Shown here piece after piece: positions 2,260 through 58,200 of a DNA stretch of 64,000 bases. The position numbers and the translations under genes are program-made. Numbering within the stretch: position 1 is the stretch's first letter; the number at the start of each line of letters is the position of its first letter. Source of the stretch: Cystobasidiomycetes sp. EMM_F5 (taxonomy: Eukaryota); contig JBPGPT010000003.1 in NCBI GenBank assembly GCA_051047955.1, forward strand, positions 496,001 through 560,000. The letters are read 5' to 3'. The notes under the pieces were generated by a model. The model made no database searches and was not told the origin of the DNA. It saw nothing but the letters and a program-made list of their open reading frames with translations.

Positions 2260-5200
2260 ATGGCAGCGGCGTACGCTATACACCGACAGGCTGCTCCGCC
2301 GTCTGGCGTATCCCATGTTATCAGTGCCCGCCTTACTCCAAGCTGTCTGCAGGAAGAAGCGGCGGCATCGTCTAGCTCGACGAGTACTCCCAAGCGCATC
2401 ATACGGAACCTCGTGACGGCTCGCAGCAATTTCATACAGATATTTGAGATATGCGAACAGCTGCACGGCAATGGAGAAGCGGTGGTCACTGATGTCAAGC
2501 TCGAAGATGGGCAGGGCGAGCAGGTCAGTAGCGAAAGCGGAATGAAGCGTGGACAATCGTCCTGTAGCGTAATATAGAGCTGATATCGTCAATGCATGCT
2601 GCGCTCGTGCTGCACCTATCTGTCGACAATTTGCATCCAATTCTATAATACAAAGCTTTCGAACGGGCATGGCATACACGATGGCAAGGCAGTAGCACGG
2701 CTATACTTTCTCCAAGAACATCAGGTTCATGGCACTATTACCGGAATCCAACGAATACAGACTATCGACACTGCAAAAGATGGTCTGGACCGGCTACTCG
2801 TTTCGTTTCGAGACGCCAAGGTGAAAAGGCCGTCATTTACGCGCAAGCGGGACGCTCCGAACTGACCTCTGACTTTCTGCAGGTCGCCTTGCTGGAATGG
2901 TCGTCGGATATCTATGACCTCGTACCTGTTTCCCTACATACCTTTGAAAGGCTGCCGCAGATGGTTAGCACAAGCTGACATGTAGCCCGATTCTCGCGAG
3001 CATGGCTGACTTCCGCCTTCAATCTCAGGTGCAAGGCAATTTGAACGGCTTCAGAGCGATACTACGGACAGACCCGCTGAATCGATGTGGAGCACTACTT
3101 TTGCCGCAAAGCACGCTCGCAGTCACGCCATTCTTCCAGGATCAGATAGAATTAGAAGGTGCTGATTCGACAAATCTTCAGAGGTGATATTCACAGATGC
3201 CAGAAACAGTCTGCGTTCTCTGCTGACGAGACATTTAACTATGAACGCAGTTTACCATACGCACCAAGCTTTACTCTGGACCTACAGGAAATTAGCCCTC
3301 AACTACACAACATTATCGACTTTGTCTTTCTTCCTGGATTCAACGAACCTACCGTGGCGTTTCTGACGCAGCCATCGCAAACTTGGGTCGGGTAGGCGAA
3401 AGAAACGTATGGCAAGCTCCCTCGCGATACTGACTATAGTGGCTCACACACAGACGTCTGGAAAACTCGAAAGATACTGTACAGCTACTGCTTGTCACCC
3501 TCGATGTGACTTCTTCGCCCCCAGCCTCTACCGTCATTTCGGCAACTCCGAATTTACCATACGATTCTCTCTACCTTACTACATGCCCTCGTGATCTCGG
3601 AGGTGTGCTAGTCACCACCTCCAATACCATTATACACGTCGACCAATCTGGGAAACGAACAGGCATCGCAGTGAATCCTTGGGCGAACATGGTCACTGAC
3701 CTATGTCGCATGGAGAATGGTTTCGAGCCTGGCAATCCATTGCGACTTGAAGACTCCAAGATGATCTTCATCACTGCCGATGTCTCGCTTCTCTTTCTGC
3801 AAGATGGCAATGTACGAGCCGTCAAGATACAGCGCGATGGACGTACGATATCTAAATTGGTACTGCTGCCCGATATTCTACGTCAAGGAATGGCGCCTTC
3901 ATGTGTAGAGCTCATTCGCAGTCGCTTGACTCCCAAAGCAGAAGATGGATCGAGCAGAGCTTGCTATATTTTTGTCGGTAGCATGATGAGCGATAGCGAG
4001 GTCGTGCGCGTCGATATGGACACAGTGTTCAGTCTTGACGCTGCATCCGTCAAAGCGGAAGCTAAGCTCGATAATGCCGATGAGGACGATATGGGTGGGT
4101 CGTCTAACATCATCTTCACAGCGCATATAGCGAAGCTGAAAGCGTGAATTAGATATATACGGATCCGCCGAAGTGAAGGCAGCAGTCTTGAATGCGGAAA
4201 GTGCGGCACGCATAGCAGCTGCAACACGCTTGGAACTGCAACTTACAAAGACGGAGGCTTTGCCTGGGTATGGCCCCATACGCGCCGGAGTCATCGGAAC
4301 TGTCGATATAAATGCAAGTCGAGTGGCTTGTTGACATCTCCTGCACTGACAAAATTCCTATATGCAGACGCCGGCAGAGCTCGTTTGCTGTACTGGCGAT
4401 GCCAAAACAGGGGGCCTGACTGTGCTCCGTGTAAGTCAGATTATTCTTCCCGATAGAACCCCGCAATCCTGACAACGTTACGTAGCGGTCCCTCTTACCT
4501 TCACATCGCCGCAAGCTGAACCTGGATCACCCAACCGAGCACGTGTGGCACGTCTCGTTGACCAAGCCGACGCATCGAAAGCACTTCTTCATTACGTCTG
4601 CCGATCGTGAGACCCAGGTAGTTTCCGACTCAGCATGGCCCAGGCTATTGATATGCTGACAATACAAAACGACAGGTGTATACGCTAGAATCTGACTCGA
4701 CAGAACCAGCTCATATGAAAACGTTTGGAAAGACAACTCTCCTCGCGTGTCCGATATTAAATGGACAGTATATGCTGCATGTGCGACCAGATGCACTAGT
4801 CGTATTCAACGAAGGTAAATGAAATCTCGCTAGCCGTACACTCGGCTGTGCTCATCAGCCGCTCTAGATCTCACCGAAAAGCAGAGCATCAAGTTGGCGC
4901 GAGATAACCTTGCCAAGTCAGCGTCCTGCGTCGGCTCTTATGTGCTCGTGCAGCACGCAGCGGGGGTGCCGGTGCTGTATCTAGCCGATGAAGAACAGGG
5001 ATCGCTCATCCAGCAATCCTTACCAGAAAACGTAACTGGCATTCACTTTCTTCTAGATGGAGGTGAAAAGCTCATGACATATCGTACCGCAGATCACTGC
5101 ATCGTGCATAACGACACTGTTCGATAATAGTCATGGCAGTTGCCGAGTGCGTCACGCTCGCCCGCACCATGCACAAGAGGTCGCGTACACGCGACCGCTG

Positions 5201-50963: not shown

Positions 50964-53900
50964 TCAGTCTACTTGCATACTGTCGGTTGGCTTGACGATT
51001 TCCGTGCGCAAAATTTGTGCTGCAGAAACGTTATCAGGACGTGTGACCTTGATGGGGAAGCTAATGGAGATGCTTACCTATTTGCTGGAAGAGCGCGCTG
51101 ACGCCAACATTTGTTTCAGTATTCACCGTAGCGTGGAAGATATTGGCGTGTCGGGAGTCTTTGCGGAGTCCGTTTTGAAATGATACGGTAGCTGTACCAC
51201 GGACATCATTGACAACAACGATGAGCGGGTTATTGCTACCTTCCAATGCGATGTTCTGCATAAGACAGGAAGTTGCGGCCTTATCGACACTCTTTCTCTG
51301 TTTGATTACGTCAGCCAGTTTCTGACACTTTTCGATCCCGACTCACACCATGAACTGATTTCTGTAGCAGGATATGTACGTCGCGCTGTCTCTTGAAAGC
51401 ATTGATGGCGTAGTATGGATTATAACGCATCCAATTGTCTCCGGTGGTAGCCTCGTTGACATTGCTCAGGTAGCGATATACCAGCTCTACGCATCTGTCG
51501 CGCTTTGCGAAACACTTATTGAAGCTCGTCCAGCCGTATTTGGCGAAATCTGCCGGAGATTTGGGATGCATCTTGCCGGTCTCGCTGTCATACAACTGAC
51601 TGACATGCTCAAGGCCAGATGAAGAATGCGTAAAGACAAGATGGAAAGCATCGCTATGTACTTTAGGAGTTTCTGAGCTGCCGAAGGAGTACTCCGATGC
51701 GGTAGACGAGCCGTCCGACGCGAAGCGGTCATGAGCGGAAGGAACATCGCTAGTTGCGATAGTTGCGATACTGCCAGTATCGCTAGGCTGGGTCGGAGGC
51801 ACTGTAGCCCGCTTGTCAACTGCGGCCGACGCTCGCGAACCCACCAAATCCACATCGTCTTCGCCTTCGTAAACTTGATCAGATTTGGTGGTAGGCTTGC
51901 GCGTAGTTTTGCGCTTCGCGGCTGTGCGTGGACGATCAGTATCCGATGAGCCAGACTCTGGCTCGACAGAAGCTGCCGGGGTCCATGGCTCTCTGGGCTG
52001 ATCTGGTTCCGTCTTGACTACCGGCGAGCTTGATGCGCTGCGAAGTACTCTCTCGGTCACGTTAGGAGTGCTCGACCTCCTGCGACTTCTCTTGCTGGGC
52101 GTGATGTTCAATAGATCTGCATCGGCCGGGGCCGTCATACAAGCTTTTCGAAGCGGGCTACCAGCAGACGGACCGCCAAGAAGCGAAGCAAAGGCAATCT
52201 TCTTTTGCACAGGATTTGGAGACGACCTTTGAACTTTTGCATTTCTTCGCGGCACGATGTCCTCGCTCTCTGATTTGATCGCCTGAGAGGCACACGAGGC
52301 GTCACTGTCTGCTTTAGCGGGCGTTGCGATGCGTCTAGCAGCCGCCAGAATCTCAGCAGAAATAGGTGAATCGTGCTTCCGCGGAGACCTTAAGCCAGGT
52401 GTCTGCTGAGCTACAGTCGCCCGCTGTACAACCGGACGCAATTCTACTGTAGCTGTCGGAAGCGTCTTCTTCGCTTGCGGAGTCCGTATGACCGGCTTGC
52501 CTTTTCTCACACCGCTCGTCTGCGCCGGAGTGACTTCGATACCGGGCTTCTGGCGAGCCAAGCGGAATAGGCATCTGATCAGGTAGAGAAACAGTACAGC
52601 GAGACCGATAGGTATGACAATATGCATATCCACCGATGAACATTCTTCCGAACCGGTAATTGCAGCAGACTCCAATGTGTCGATGTTGGCCGGTATTATG
52701 ACTGCGGCTATAGTTTCCGCAGAAGTTGTCGGTCCGTCATAATTTACGAGCATCAACATTGGAGGATATTCTTCCATAAAATGAAGATCATCATCGGTTG
52801 GCGGGAGATCTTCATAAACATCTGGTCGAACTCCTTCACCACCTATGTCCTCGATTGATACGGTCACACTCTCGCCGTGATGCACTTCATTGTATCCATA
52901 TTCCACAGATAACATTGCCTTGTTGGCCGTTTTGGACAGATAATGCGCGCTAAAGCAAAGTATTGCCATGGTGAGCAAATTGGAGCCAAGCATCATCGCA
53001 ATTATGCCCTTTAGCAGTTTCATGGGATTTCGCCAGACAAATCGCAAGTTCTTGTTGCTGTCCGGATGTGTGGCCGAAGTATTATGCTCAACCGCTCCGG
53101 GCTCCCCGCTGTCAATGATACCGTTTTCTTCAGGGTGTGAAGGAACGGCCACGACAGTTGCATCATCTTGAGATACTTGAGGTACGATCTGAGTGCTAGA
53201 CAGTTGTTCGTGGGTACCTTTTGCTTCCCAAGAGCTACCAAAAAGCGATGCGGATACCGCCTCGTCACCTGAGTTGACGGTAAAAGCGCGAGACATCTCT
53301 GTTTGAGCCATGCTTGCCGCTGCTGTATCGATGTGCGATGTTCCTGCTGCGGAAGCCGACGCATCAACAATGCTGCGAGATGCATTGGCGGAGGCATCGA
53401 TTTGCGCACTCTCGAAGGCAGAGTCATGTACGGTTCGGACTGCTTCACCCCCATTCTCGGCACGACCGACTAGATTCGACACTGCTGAATTTTGACCCGC
53501 TGGAGAAAGTATGAAGCTCGCCACGCTGGATCCGGATGGCGAAAGCACGCTCTGAAGAGGATGCGGGACTTGTGCATCCTTGAGAGCAGCACTCGTCAAT
53601 GGGACACCAAGTGATACTGGTCGTGTTGCGAGCGAAGAACGAGGCTGAAGCGGGCTATCGCACACATCCCAGCTACTAATACGGCTGCTGACGTCTGTTA
53701 GTCCAGACTTTGAGATTGTATGCAATGATGGAGGCGTCTTGACACCATCACATAGGATTCCTGCGCCAGAGTCCGCCACGCTGTGAGACATGGCGCTCTT
53801 CCTCTTGGCAAGCTCATCGCTGCTCGAAGGATAAGCAAGGGACGCAGTTGAAATACACGCTGAATCAGCACTACCATAGTTCTGGTATACCCTCATCAAG

Positions 53901-54397
53901 CTGTATGTGTCCGGCTTCTGCTTGATTTCAGGCTGATCGCGTTGACTTGGAAGTACAGCCGCAGCTGATTCGGCTACACCCAACCTGCCACGACGACGCT
54001 CTGCCATTGCTTCAGCATACGATAGAGGTTTCCCTCTGTATCCGAGTGATTGCAGTGACCCATCCGCCAATCGAGCGAGCACTTCATCCCGAGCGTATGA
54101 AGGATACGTAGGCTCAGACTGGGCATAGTGAGAGTCAGAATTGAGATAGAATGTATTGTGTACGCTAGGGCTGTCGCCAATGTCCGAGGCGAGAGCAGCG
54201 GAATCTAGCGAGATGTCAGATGGAGCGGACGACAGAGTCGACCAGCAGTCTTGTTCCTCTTCTGTACGGGATGGCACATGATCTGCGAATCCCAGACCAG
54301 TATCGTCACTCCCTGATACATCGCTGCCTGTATCGAGCGGGTTAGGCATGATGAATTGGACTGCCGAGCCGGGTGGGTTCAAGTTGATATCGGCCAT
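50964..54397 (-). CDS. Hypothetical large two-TM protein with uncharacterised C-terminal globular region
   Basis: 1028 aa ORF splices in frame (intron 51346-51298) to ORF 51061-51261, then to a final exon with stop at 50964; two central hydrophobic helices. Confidence 0.72.
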
Positions 54398-54940
54398 AGT
54401 TGGCTAGGTAGGCCAGCTGGACTTGAGGCTGTACGCCGTGAGCAGAATGTGTTTATGTCCAGCCTTGCGACTGTTTCTCCTTCCCGCCGTCCACAAGTTC
54501 TCCGCAGCCCAGCCCGCCCGGTTCACAAGAGTAGTCGCGCAAACGAGCGAGGCCGGTTCAACGCGGTTTTACAGAGTCGCACACAGCTGTGGATGCAGCG
54601 GGGATGCGTGTGTATGTTTGCAGGATGAGTCGTAGAGGAGGAGAAAAGTGCACGCTAAAGTGATCATCGATCCCTCCTCGCAGTGCAGTGAGGGTGGGAA
54701 TTGCTCGTATGGCTGGACCGGACCTGAAATGGGTGGCAAATGGTAGACTCGCAAACGGGACAGACACTACAGGACGTCACAAGGCATAAGGTACAACGAC
54801 TGCGAGAGCTACACTATGTTGCGAGATTCAATTAGGTCAGGTCTGCACAAATGTTGAGAGAAAGCAATACAATCAGTCAGTTTGCAAATAATGCACCCGC
54901 GAAAAATAAAGCGAGACAGCGAGCGTGAAGGGACTGTGGT

Positions 54941-55371
54941 ATGTCAGCAAAGCCTGTAATTAAAATCCTGAGCGCTATCACGGCCAGTCACGCGTTATCG
55001 GCACGCTGGCTGACCCTTCCTGTGTGCCAGAATATGGACACCTGACCCAAAGCCAAGCGCTTTCCAGTACATCACAACGCGCCAACTGCAGCGGAACTCG
55101 GTCATATTACGTATTAATCAAGCAAAATGCATCGACATAGTCGGCGACGCGAACGCCACCTTTCTGATGATGCAAGTACTCTTTCTCACGTAATACGACC
55201 GAGTCTGCCGAAACAGCTGAGCGAAGGATGACACTGTAATCACACTGTCAAGGACTGCAGAAGTACCGTATTCCGGCAGGACAGTCCGCCATGCGCGACA
55301 AGCAAGACCGGCCTTTGTGCAAGCGCGTGTATCATAGAATGGATTTAGCGATTGTGTTTTCATCGGACGAG
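54941..55371 (-). ncRNA. Very long (about 430 nt) box C/D RNA with SNORD17-type LSU guide
   Basis: Box C CCGAUGA (55366-55360); guide AAUCCAUUC plus D' AUGA (55335-55332); 17-bp stem; box D CUGA (54947-54944), 67 nt from the branch site. Confidence 0.62.
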
Positions 55372-55561
55372 ATGGCGTGTAGGACGAGGAGAATGACTCG
55401 AAAAAGAAATGCCGACGTACCAGTTTGTAAGCCCTTCAAGTTGCTTCACTCTCGCATGTACATTCATCTGCAAGCTGCGCAATTTCTGCCGAAACGCAAA
55501 TCAGCATATGGCCCATATACAGATGACGAGTGATGAGATGCGACAAAGGGAATGCAATGAG

Positions 55562-55678
55562 AGATCAGACATTGGTAAGCTATTGGTAAAAGGAGTTGGC
55601 TGCATTTCGCTAGATTCCACGCTGGAAACAGCAATCAGAAGCAGAACTGATTATTGATATTTTACTGTCATCAGGAAA
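55562..55678 (-). ncRNA. SNR61: Box C/D snoRNA snR61/SNORD38 (yeast 25S Am1133 equivalent)
   Basis: Box C UGAUGA (55673-55668). Guide CAGUUCUGCUU before D' CUGA (55638-55635) pairs with LSU AAGCAGAACUG, and the +5 rule gives the known Am. Box D at 55568-55565. Confidence 0.9.
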
Positions 55679-55693
55679 GAAGGAAGGGGACGG

Positions 55694-55716: not shown

Positions 55717-55880
55717 GTCTGTATGTATAGTGAAACGTATCAAAACTTACTGGTCAAATTCCATCCGAACGACTTCCTGTGCAATAACGAAACGTTCTGG
55801 TGAAGTATGTAGAGAAAGACGCAGCGTCAGCGTGCTCTTCTATGCACCGCTGCTTCCAACAAACGTGTTGAGCGAGTACA

Positions 55881-56010
55881 AACTCAGTTGGTGGTACATG
55901 AATAAAGCGAACATTCCCAATCCTCCGCCCTTGCAGGCAAGAAGACAGCGGGTATCATAGAGCTAATTTCGTGATATGCAACGGTTTAGGCTGCACAATT
56001 CATCAAAGAC
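55881..56010 (-). ncRNA. SNR55: Box C/D snoRNA snR55/SNORD33 (yeast 18S Um1269 equivalent)
   Basis: Box C UGAUGA (56005-56000). Guide CAUGUACCACCA before D CUGA (55887-55884) pairs with SSU UGGUGGUGCAUG (one G-U), and the +5 rule gives the known Um. Confidence 0.87.
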
Positions 56011-56583
56011 GGGGAGGTGTGGAATTTGAAATCGAAGACGGTGCGTGCGTTTTCCAAGCAGAAAACTCACAGTCGGTAAGTGCAGACGATGTGGGCGTTG
56101 CACTCGTATAATAGCGGATCATAAGGTGTCGTTACGGGGCGAAAGTCAATGTCGACGCACTCCCATGCTCGGTCGTCGGTAAGTTTAAAGGCAGGCTGCG
56201 GCTTGAAATTTTGGATCGAAACTAGGATGCGACCTCTGACCAGCCTGCGCGACCGAGCTTTTGTTTGGACTAAAGGCGTGTTCTGCGACTTCTCGTGAAG
56301 CTCTACGCTCCATTCCAAAGCCTGACCAGCTGGTTGTGCTTCTTGCTGAGTCAGTTTGAATCCAACTTTAGGCCTTCGTTCGAGGCCGTCTGCGCTTTGA
56401 CCCTGGAGCAACTTGTCGCGGATCCGAACTGAGCTTCCAAGGGCAGCCAGTCTGACTGCAGACTTCTTGGACATCGGACATTAAGGCCAAGCACCCATAA
56501 TCAGAAGATACGCGTCAATTGCAGCAAGTACGGCCAGGTGTTCTTCCAGCATTCACGGTCGAGCACACCTCTGAACCACCAGC

Positions 56584-58200
56584 ATGTCGTGGAGATGTGA
56601 GTACTTTTCAATACATGCAGTCAAAAGCACCGTTGCTCTAGCTGACTATCGTACACCCGCTCGCCCTTCCTCGTCCACAGCAAACTCCCAGCGGACCGGC
56701 GCAAATGAGGCACCTCTAGCAAACCAGCGAGGCTGGGGAGGCGGAGGGGGTGGACCACCCAGTGGAGGCAGGCCACAGGATGGTTACGGTGGACAATCAT
56801 CCTACGCTCCGCCTCCCATGTCTGGCGGTGGACCTCCCGGCGAGAGGAAGCGAAAATCACGATGGGGTGACGAAAACGACAAGATTCAAGTAGCAGGTCT
56901 TCCTACTGCCATCAGTGGTGATGTCAACAGCAAGGATTTGGAGAATTATGCCGTACATCTGCGTCTCGAGGAGATTGGCAGAAAATTGAGGTCGGGAGAT
57001 GTAGTCCCGCCTGAACGTGAACGTTCCCCATCCCCTCCTCCCACATACGACCACCAGGGCAGACGTACCAACACGAGAGATATCAGATATCGCAAAAAGC
57101 TAGAGGATGAGCGCAACAGGCTCGTCGACCGCGCTATGCGCTCCGACCCAAACTACAAACCTCCAACAGAGTACCTCATGGCAAAGAGGATGGGCGGCAG
57201 ACCATCTGAGAAGATCTACCTACCCGTCAAAGAGTTTCCAGAGATCAAATGGATCGGTCTCGTCCTCGGACCCCGTGGAAATTCGCTCAAGCAGATGGAG
57301 CGCGAAACGGGCGCCAAGATTGTCATTCGAGGCAAAGGTTCCACAAAGGAAGGCAAGACATCGTATGGTAACCGTGCACAGGATGAAGATGACGAGCTGC
57401 ATTGTAACATCACCGCCGACACGCAAGAAAAAGTCGACGCATGCGTCAAGCTGGTCAATCGAGTCATTCAGACTGCTGCATCCATGCCAGATGAGCAGAA
57501 TGAACACAAGCGAATGCAGCTTCGTGAGCTGGCCATGCTCAACGGTACGCTCCGAGACGACGAAAACCAGCCATGCCAGAACTGCGGTAAAGTCGGTCAT
57601 CGCAAGTACGACTGTCCCGAGCAGCGCAACTTTACAGCAAACGTCGTTTGTCGAAACTGTGGTGGTATGGGACACATGGCAAGAGACTGTATCGCTCATC
57701 GCAACAAGGCAGCTGGAGAAGCTACCCCTCAATTCGATAGCGAGTATTCTGCGCTCATGGCAGAATTAGGTGAAGGTCCTCCAGGTGGAGCTTCAGGACC
57801 TGCAGGAGGCAACAACCCAGGCGGCCCTGATGTAGGTGGTCAGGGCTACAATGCCGCACCACCAGCCCAGCCTCTCAAGGCCCTCCCGCCATGGCGCATC
57901 CCGTCCAACTGGCATCCACCCCAGCCTCCCAATCAAGGACCTGGTGGTCGTGGTGGTGGAGGGTACACATACACTCCAGTCGGACCACAGCCAGGCGCTG
58001 CAGGAGGATACGGTGGTTATGAACAACCCGGTGCAGCTGGATACGGAGGACAGCAGACCGGTGGTGCCGGATACGACTATTCTTCCTACTACAGCAGCGG
58101 TCAGCAGACTGGATACGGCCAGCAAGATGGCTATCCACCTGCAGCTGGCTACGCTCAAGCACCGGCCTATGGTACACCAGCTGCAGGATATGGCTATTAA
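56584..58200 (+). CDS. MSL5: Branchpoint-binding protein BBP/SF1
   Basis: RKRKSRWG, RSPSPPPTYD, KH-QUA2 domain (GPRGNSLK), two CCHC zinc knuckles, Gly/Tyr/Pro-rich tail. Confidence 0.97.
   Translation: MSWRCEYFSIHAVKSTVALADYRTPARPSSSTANSQRTGANEAPLANQRGWGGGGGGPPSGGRPQDGYGGQSSYAPPPMSGGGPPGERKRKSRWGDENDKIQVAGLPTAISGDVNSKDLENYAVHLRLEEIGRKLRSGDVVPPERERSPSPPPTYDHQGRRTNTRDIRYRKKLEDERNRLVDRAMRSDPNYKPPTEYLMAKRMGGRPSEKIYLPVKEFPEIKWIGLVLGPRGNSLKQMERETGAKIVIRGKGSTKEGKTSYGNRAQDEDDELHCNITADTQEKVDACVKLVNRVIQTAASMPDEQNEHKRMQLRELAMLNGTLRDDENQPCQNCGKVGHRKYDCPEQRNFTANVVCRNCGGMGHMARDCIAHRNKAAGEATPQFDSEYSALMAELGEGPPGGASGPAGGNNPGGPDVGGQGYNAAPPAQPLKALPPWRIPSNWHPPQPPNQGPGGRGGGGYTYTPVGPQPGAAGGYGGYEQPGAAGYGGQQTGGAGYDYSSYYSSGQQTGYGQQDGYPPAAGYAQAPAYGTPAAGYGY

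Follow-up and report, generated by a model that had tools for sequence, protein, structure and literature searches.

A putative oversized box C/D guide RNA of the SNORD17/CD_53 functional type in an intron of a basidiomycete gene

Intron 3 of a small minus-strand gene with three introns, located in a 64-kb window of basidiomycete DNA (the window being the whole stretch analysed here), probably encodes an oversized box C/D guide RNA of ~432 nt which is of the SNORD17/CD_53 functional type and in which the loop between boxes D' and C' is expanded. The intron would give rise to the snoRNA on the minus strand (55371-54940), the spacer before D' would pair with GAAUGGAUU in helix 71 of the LSU rRNA, and this guide would place the 2'-O-methyl group added by fibrillarin (Nop1) on the U of GAAUGG, a residue that would correspond to the human target of SNORD17. 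The D'-C' loop would be expanded into a rod that must stay paired for D' and C' to stay adjacent. Assembly of the snoRNP, methylation, the ends of the RNA and the pairing of C' with D' are features that we infer. Judged by its sequence, the candidate would resemble SNORD17 and CD_53 in its manner of working, the likeness proposed being one of function.

Table 1. Positions of the features discussed in the text; position 1 is the first letter of the window.
Feature	Position	Strand	Remarks
Host gene first exon with 135-aa ORF	56067..56474	minus	ORF of no known family
Host intron 1	56070-55797	minus	274 nt; contains box C/D RNA
Intron 1 box C/D snoRNA	55880..56010	minus	~125 nt; UGAUGA at 56005, CUGA at 55887-55884
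Host intron 2	55750-55486	minus	265 nt; contains snR61/Z1/Z11-like box C/D snoRNA
Intron 2 snoRNA, snR61/Z1/Z11-like	55562..55679	minus	RF00476, 32.7 bits (gathering score 45), E 0.014
Host intron 3	54843..55420	minus	578 nt; donor GTACGT 55420, branch CTGAC 54880-54876, acceptor AG 54844-54843; read from sequence and motif positions, splicing predicted
Predicted mature RNA	54940..55371	minus	432 nt; ends placed by inference ~5 nt outside boxes C and D
Box C candidate CCGAUGA	55360..55366	minus	GAUGA core intact; CC replaces RU
Antisense element AAUCCAUUC	55337..55345	minus	followed by U, then AUGA (D'); one nt before D'
Box D' candidate AUGA	55332..55335	minus	sequence reading
Rod, one imperfect hairpin	54972..55326	minus	355 nt; base GCGCU 55326-55322 with AGCGC 54976-54972; apical loop UUCG 55153-55150
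Box C' candidate AGGAUUU	54963..54969	minus	placed from k-turn geometry in one sequence
Spacer upstream of box D, UAAUUACAGGCUUUG	54948..54962	minus	15 nt; possible second guide
Box D CUGA	54944..54947	minus	motif position
Union of four 100%-identical contigs	54956..55239	strandless	four runs, four studies (Logan contigs)
X1 contig	54967-55239	strandless	100% identical to intron interior
X2 contig	54956-55196	strandless	100% identical to intron interior
X3 contig	54986-55194	strandless	100% identical to intron interior
X4 contig	55000-55184	strandless	100% identical; metatranscriptome library
Block common to 214-nt X2 contig	55326..55361	strandless	34/36 nt; last 36 letters of the contig
Splicing factor 1 / branchpoint-bridging protein gene	56584-58200	plus	intron-less, divergent, ~110 nt from host ORF start
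1028-aa uninterrupted ORF	51311-54397	minus	open reading frame downstream of host gene

The candidate reads on the minus strand as box C, a 24-nt spacer, D', 5 nt, the rod, the C' candidate, a 15-nt spacer and box D (Table 1). CCGAUGA lies 54 nt after the donor of intron 3 and CUGA 67 nt before its branch A (54877, in CTGAC), and these distances are matched in introns 1 and 2, where box C follows the donor by 64 and 76 nt and box D precedes the branch A by 57 and 64 nt, respectively. Like the candidate, these ordinary intronic C/D neighbours present one snoRNA per intron and the same order of boxes; they measure ~120 nt, whereas in the candidate the D'-C' loop has grown to 355 nt. NNGATGA words occur only four times in the 1.8-kb host region, two of them being the C boxes of the neighbours, with one in exon 3 and one in intron 3, while the chance of meeting both a GATGA within 30 nt and a CTGA within 15 nt is ~0.002 (calculated by hand). 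All coordinates and motifs were re-read on the minus strand, and the intron length, the two box motifs, their distances and the geometry of the two neighbouring snoRNAs are as an earlier note on this DNA had described them. The same note put intron 3 at ten times the usual intron length, which in a rough check holds against the 10 candidates of 49-81 nt among the 33 coding introns proposed by a crude scan (the remainder are probably noise), but not against introns 1 and 2 of the same gene, at 274 and 265 nt.

Both box C, with CC in place of RU, and box D', with AUGA rather than CUGA, are non-canonical. A clean C' box was not found in the candidate, for which the best choice, AGGAUUU, overlaps a GGAUUU near the 3' end that the minimum free energy (MFE) fold pairs with AAAUCC from the guide region (pair probability 0.64-0.86), so that the guide may be partly masked. 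Following the standard kink-turn pairing scheme, the GAUU of the C' candidate and the AUGA of D' would be able to form G.A, A.G, U.U and U-A pairs in this one sequence, and the unusual A of D' could be matched by a U in the C' candidate. No complementarity that would provide a terminal stem is present directly outside boxes C and D, and the snR61-like neighbour is likewise without one. A 17-nt pair of 82% complementarity does link 55455-55439 in exon 3 with 54935-54919 in intron 3, that is 73-89 nt upstream of box C and 9-25 nt downstream of box D; it is one of four such pairs in 611 nt and could represent either an external stem joining the ends of the snoRNA or chance.

The antisense element AAUCCAUUC is complementary to the LSU motif GAAUGGAUU over nine uninterrupted Watson-Crick pairs; we take this motif to be the conserved eukaryotic sequence of helix 71. 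A55340, the fifth nucleotide upstream of D', falls opposite the U of GAAUGG under the +5 rule, and the sequence supports a guide in this register before an AUGA D' box, as previously proposed. A 9-bp duplex is short, at the low end for methylation guides. Pairing of the 24-nt spacer with a 23-nt 25S segment, taken from a published grass 25S rRNA primer that stands in for the rRNA of this fungus, was computed at -13.1 kcal/mol, a value equalled by 12 of 5000 shuffled spacers. When 24-nt windows along the whole 432-nt RNA were compared, those centred on the guide were among the best (-14.7), with one window inside the rod at -14.9. Scans of viral contigs gave no match either to the LSU motif or to a 20-mer from the rod; a pattern combining boxes and guide had three matches there, to phage or giant virus, which were taken as chance.

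The rod begins 5 nt after the AUGA of D' and ends just before the C' candidate AGGAUUU. On the minus strand the stretch 54930-55385 folds at -182.5 kcal/mol (z -5.6), with none of 100 shuffled sequences as good, as against -141.7 kcal/mol (z -1.0) for the plus strand of the same stretch. The MFE fold contains 151 pairs, 23 of them G-U and nearly all within the rod, and when 40 nt at the 5' end and 31 nt at the 3' end are constrained to be unpaired, only 6.1 of 179.3 kcal/mol is lost and the rod does not change. Aligned to the reverse-complemented 3' arm, the 5' arm gives 121 Watson-Crick columns, 17 G-U pairs and three A-C oppositions (one-sided binomial 0.0013, by hand). Neutral decay of a DNA palindrome predicts equal numbers of G-U and A-C, and the 17 against three found here thus indicate selection at the RNA level. 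At the DNA level only a 17-nt near-perfect inverted repeat is detectable; taken with the strand asymmetry of the fold and the excess of G-U, this points to pairing of the rod that is maintained on the transcribed strand, as RNA. The ~350 nt of extra structured sequence proposed in the earlier note is in this respect a real RNA-level structure, and on stronger evidence than was claimed for it. If D' and C' have to be held adjacent, the pairing would be kept at the RNA level through G-U pairs, and that it is kept only to hold these two boxes together is the simplest reading. The 64-kb window contains no second copy of the rod or intron sequence, and no target-site duplication is seen at the base of the rod.

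Seven public runs carry part of the stretch searched and none carries half of its words. In four of these runs, from four studies, contigs that are 100% identical to the interior of intron 3 were found (X1 to X4, Table 1); the analysis makes no use of X5 to X7, whose shares are 0.25-0.30. An RNA library is on record for X4 only, an RNA origin of X1 to X3 being a guess, and identical contigs are evidence of presence, not of transcription, strand or ends. No contig in these four runs covers the exons, the snoRNAs of introns 1 and 2, 54843-54955 or 55240-55371, apart from one 36-nt piece; at contig depths of 2.6-4.5 such gaps are evidence neither for nor against any RNA end or species. The starts of the four identical contigs fall within 44 nt, which under uniform placement in the query has a chance of ~0.003 (by hand), and this clustering hints at a locally more abundant part, which may reflect either coverage bias or a shorter RNA.

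The 36-nt piece forms the end of a further contig of 214 nt in X2, which matches the window at 34 of 36 positions, for a chance expectation below 1e-5 over the letters read (by hand). This block comprises the end of box C, the whole spacer between C and D', D' itself and five more nucleotides, while the other 178 letters of the contig are unlike intron 3; alignment to intron 3 of the 30 letters beyond the shared block is no better than for shuffled sequences (624 of 2000 as good). A match so far beyond chance argues that in a related sequence the part retained is precisely the one that a guide RNA cannot lose; the contig would derive from a paralogue or from the orthologue of another fungus. 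Its length of 214 nt is close to that of Neurospora CD53, and it may represent a shorter form of the candidate.

The host gene itself appears to serve its introns. Its 135-aa ORF has no Pfam family, and a protein atlas search with it gave nothing (low recognition score). The reading frame stops 14 codons into exon 2, so that introns 2 and 3 would fall in a 3' UTR, and the gene for this reason looks more like a snoRNA host than a protein gene; its sequence suggests a non-coding or NMD-prone host. Pfam returned nothing credible for the three ORFs overlapping intron 3. In intron 2 the guide block before D' of the snR61/Z1/Z11-like snoRNA, UCAGUUCUGCUUCUGA, is identical to the RF00476 consensus, and the D-side half carries an insertion of ~22 nt. 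Rfam returned no match for the snoRNA of intron 1 at E up to 10, and the spacer before box D of this snoRNA ends in ACCACCAA, presumably complementary to the UUGGUGGU stretch of the LSU rRNA. Divergent from the host lies a gene for splicing factor 1, whose named relatives among the 120 matches listed are all basidiomycetes, at 51-65% identity, the closest relatives among the matches listed (P0003-P0011) reaching 61-77%; this is a lineage with few sequenced relatives. A search of metagenome contigs with the same protein yielded 11 loci, only one of which (L001, 65% identity) is a true relative; the contig of this locus, 2008 nt long, extends no more than 135 nt upstream of the SF1 gene and stops short of the orthologous intron. 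The 1028-aa ORF downstream of the host has no Pfam family and no protein atlas match, and its exact sequence is absent from the protein collection.

The candidate stands closest in kind to a small set of long guides. The U of GAAUGG is, we assume, both U3797 of human 28S rRNA and psi2314 of yeast 25S rRNA. On this equivalence the candidate is like SNORD17 (HBI-43), as that RNA is described, in the LSU uridine that it would target, its unusual length, its intronic location and the placement of extra sequence between D' and C', which here amounts to ~352-355 nt. It differs in length, at ~432 nt against the ~237 nt of SNORD17, and its extra part is a single rod of ~150 bp, compared with the SNORD17 insert by position only. 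Rfam includes a SNORD17 family, and no Rfam family matches intron 3 at E up to 10, even when a 461-nt stretch was searched alone; over the whole 64-kb window there are no matches at the gathering score. Homology to SNORD17 finds no support in these searches, with no sequence or covariance-model similarity between the two being detectable.

SNORD17 is listed with 28S U3797 as its target and SNX5 as its host (PMC5025248), and is characterized as an 'unusually long' C/D RNA in which the stretch from D' to C' holds extra sequence and a reactive segment (bioRxiv 10.1101/037259). Human 28S rRNA is reported to contain psi-m3797 (PMC8677024), while psi2314 of yeast 25S rRNA is assigned to snR86 (PMC5699541), an RNA given as ~1 kb (PMC5824354). 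What the earlier note had said of SNORD17 and U3797, of psi-m3797 and of psi2314 and snR86 is borne out by the relevant passages of these sources (PMC5025248, PMC8677024, PMC5699541, PMC5824354). In the fungal survey Nc_CD53/CD_53 is the only C/D family with members of 200-300 nt, is reported from Pezizomycotina only, and has as its best predicted target 25S-3500, loosely conserved with a mean energy of -11.56, which is the position that the survey gives for snR86 (PMC5824354). Its Neurospora crassa member, Nc_CD53, is described as a 212-nt intergenic RNA that was cloned and detected by northern blot, and is called an orphan (PMC2780460). CD_53, as these sources present it, and the candidate are alike in being long fungal C/D RNAs that would be directed at the snR86 site through a weak duplex, the -11.56 of the former being comparable to the 9 bp found here, and they differ in that the former measures 200-300 nt (212 nt and intergenic in N. 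crassa) and the latter 432 nt within an intron; the two are likened by unusual length and predicted target. The yeast RNA snR86, from the same accounts, is exceptionally long for its class and presumably acts on the same rRNA residue, but it is an H/ACA RNA that directs pseudouridylation with a bipartite guide, whereas the candidate is without H/ACA architecture. A long C/D RNA aimed weakly at this residue is, on the evidence of the sources cited, already on record in ascomycetes and vertebrates, and the precedents of CD_53 and SNORD17 make the idea of a long guide for the site less novel than first thought. Literature searches for a link between positions 3797 and 2314, and for surveys of basidiomycete snoRNAs, returned nothing usable.

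A near-continuous duplex of ~150 bp dominates the molecule, the boxes are degenerate and without an Rfam match, and chance alone would be expected to yield a 9-nt match to rRNA at some point along 430 nt (~0.02 per 9-mer against ~5.5 kb of rRNA, by hand). These properties would suit an intron that carries a long structured hairpin other than a snoRNA, be it an RNase III or Dicer substrate, an intron-derived stable RNA or a structure by which the donor and branch point of a long intron are brought together, with the boxes and the 9-nt match coincidental. We regard this as unlikely, since it leaves unexplained why the box positions copy those of two neighbouring snoRNA introns, why the match lies in register beside D' onto a known methylated U, why the 34/36 conservation is confined to the block of C, spacer and D', and why the rod is placed so precisely between D' and the C' candidate. 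The stretch covered jointly by the identical contigs (54956-55239) would accord with a shorter RNA of ~290-300 nt consisting of the apex and the 3' arm (~55243-54940), with CCGAUGA and the guide outside it and perhaps with GUGAUUA at 55243-55237, one position off RUGAUGA, acting together with box D. Such an RNA is decidedly improbable: the GAUGA core is complete in CCGAUGA but GUGAUUA has lost the G with which the C of box D pairs, the rod would be halved and ~190 nt of its 3' arm left unpaired, the conserved 36-nt block would have no role, and contigs at a depth of ~3 cannot define the ends of an RNA.

If a DNA foldback or an inverted repeat of MITE type had inserted into an intron that was empty or carried an ordinary short snoRNA, no RNA function would be required and the contigs would represent multi-copy DNA. 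The 17-nt near-perfect inverted-repeat core of the hairpin, and the fact that three of the four runs may be DNA, agree with such an origin; it is nevertheless very improbable, as there is no second copy within the 64-kb window, only 17 nt register as an inverted repeat at the DNA level, the rod base has no target-site duplication, and a strand-asymmetric fold with 17 G-U pairs against three A-C is not what neutral decay of a palindrome predicts. Hardly credible is an H/ACA guide that pseudouridylates the same U: although yeast is reported to modify the site by means of the long H/ACA RNA snR86, and an ACA is present near the 3' side at 54957-54955, intron 3 forms one rod rather than two hairpins with a hinge H box, and the target U lies inside an unbroken stretch of complementarity, not unpaired within a bipartite pocket.

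Within the preferred reading of intron 3 as an expanded box C/D guide, the rod might have a function beyond keeping D' and C' together. Great length would then be a required and ancient property of the guides for the helix-71 uridine (SNORD17, CD_53, snR86 and the candidate), the rod a working domain and the RNA also an assembly chaperone. The rod could in that case serve as a docking arm, or could offer a double-stranded platform to a helicase or to an assembly factor that binds dsRNA, and this factor would hold or time the folding of the intersubunit-bridge region in the pre-60S particle. We consider this extension doubtful.

If made as predicted, the RNA of intron 3 would extend the long SNORD17/CD_53-type guides to basidiomycetes for the first time and, at 432 nt, would to our knowledge exceed in length every methylation-guide box C/D snoRNA described so far. 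The orphan CD53 family of Neurospora would gain independent support for its weakly predicted target. The rod also illustrates clearly how selection keeps an inserted RNA segment paired, G-U being far more frequent than A-C. An odd pattern would be sharpened as well, in which three separate lineages have oversized guides for one uridine at the subunit interface.
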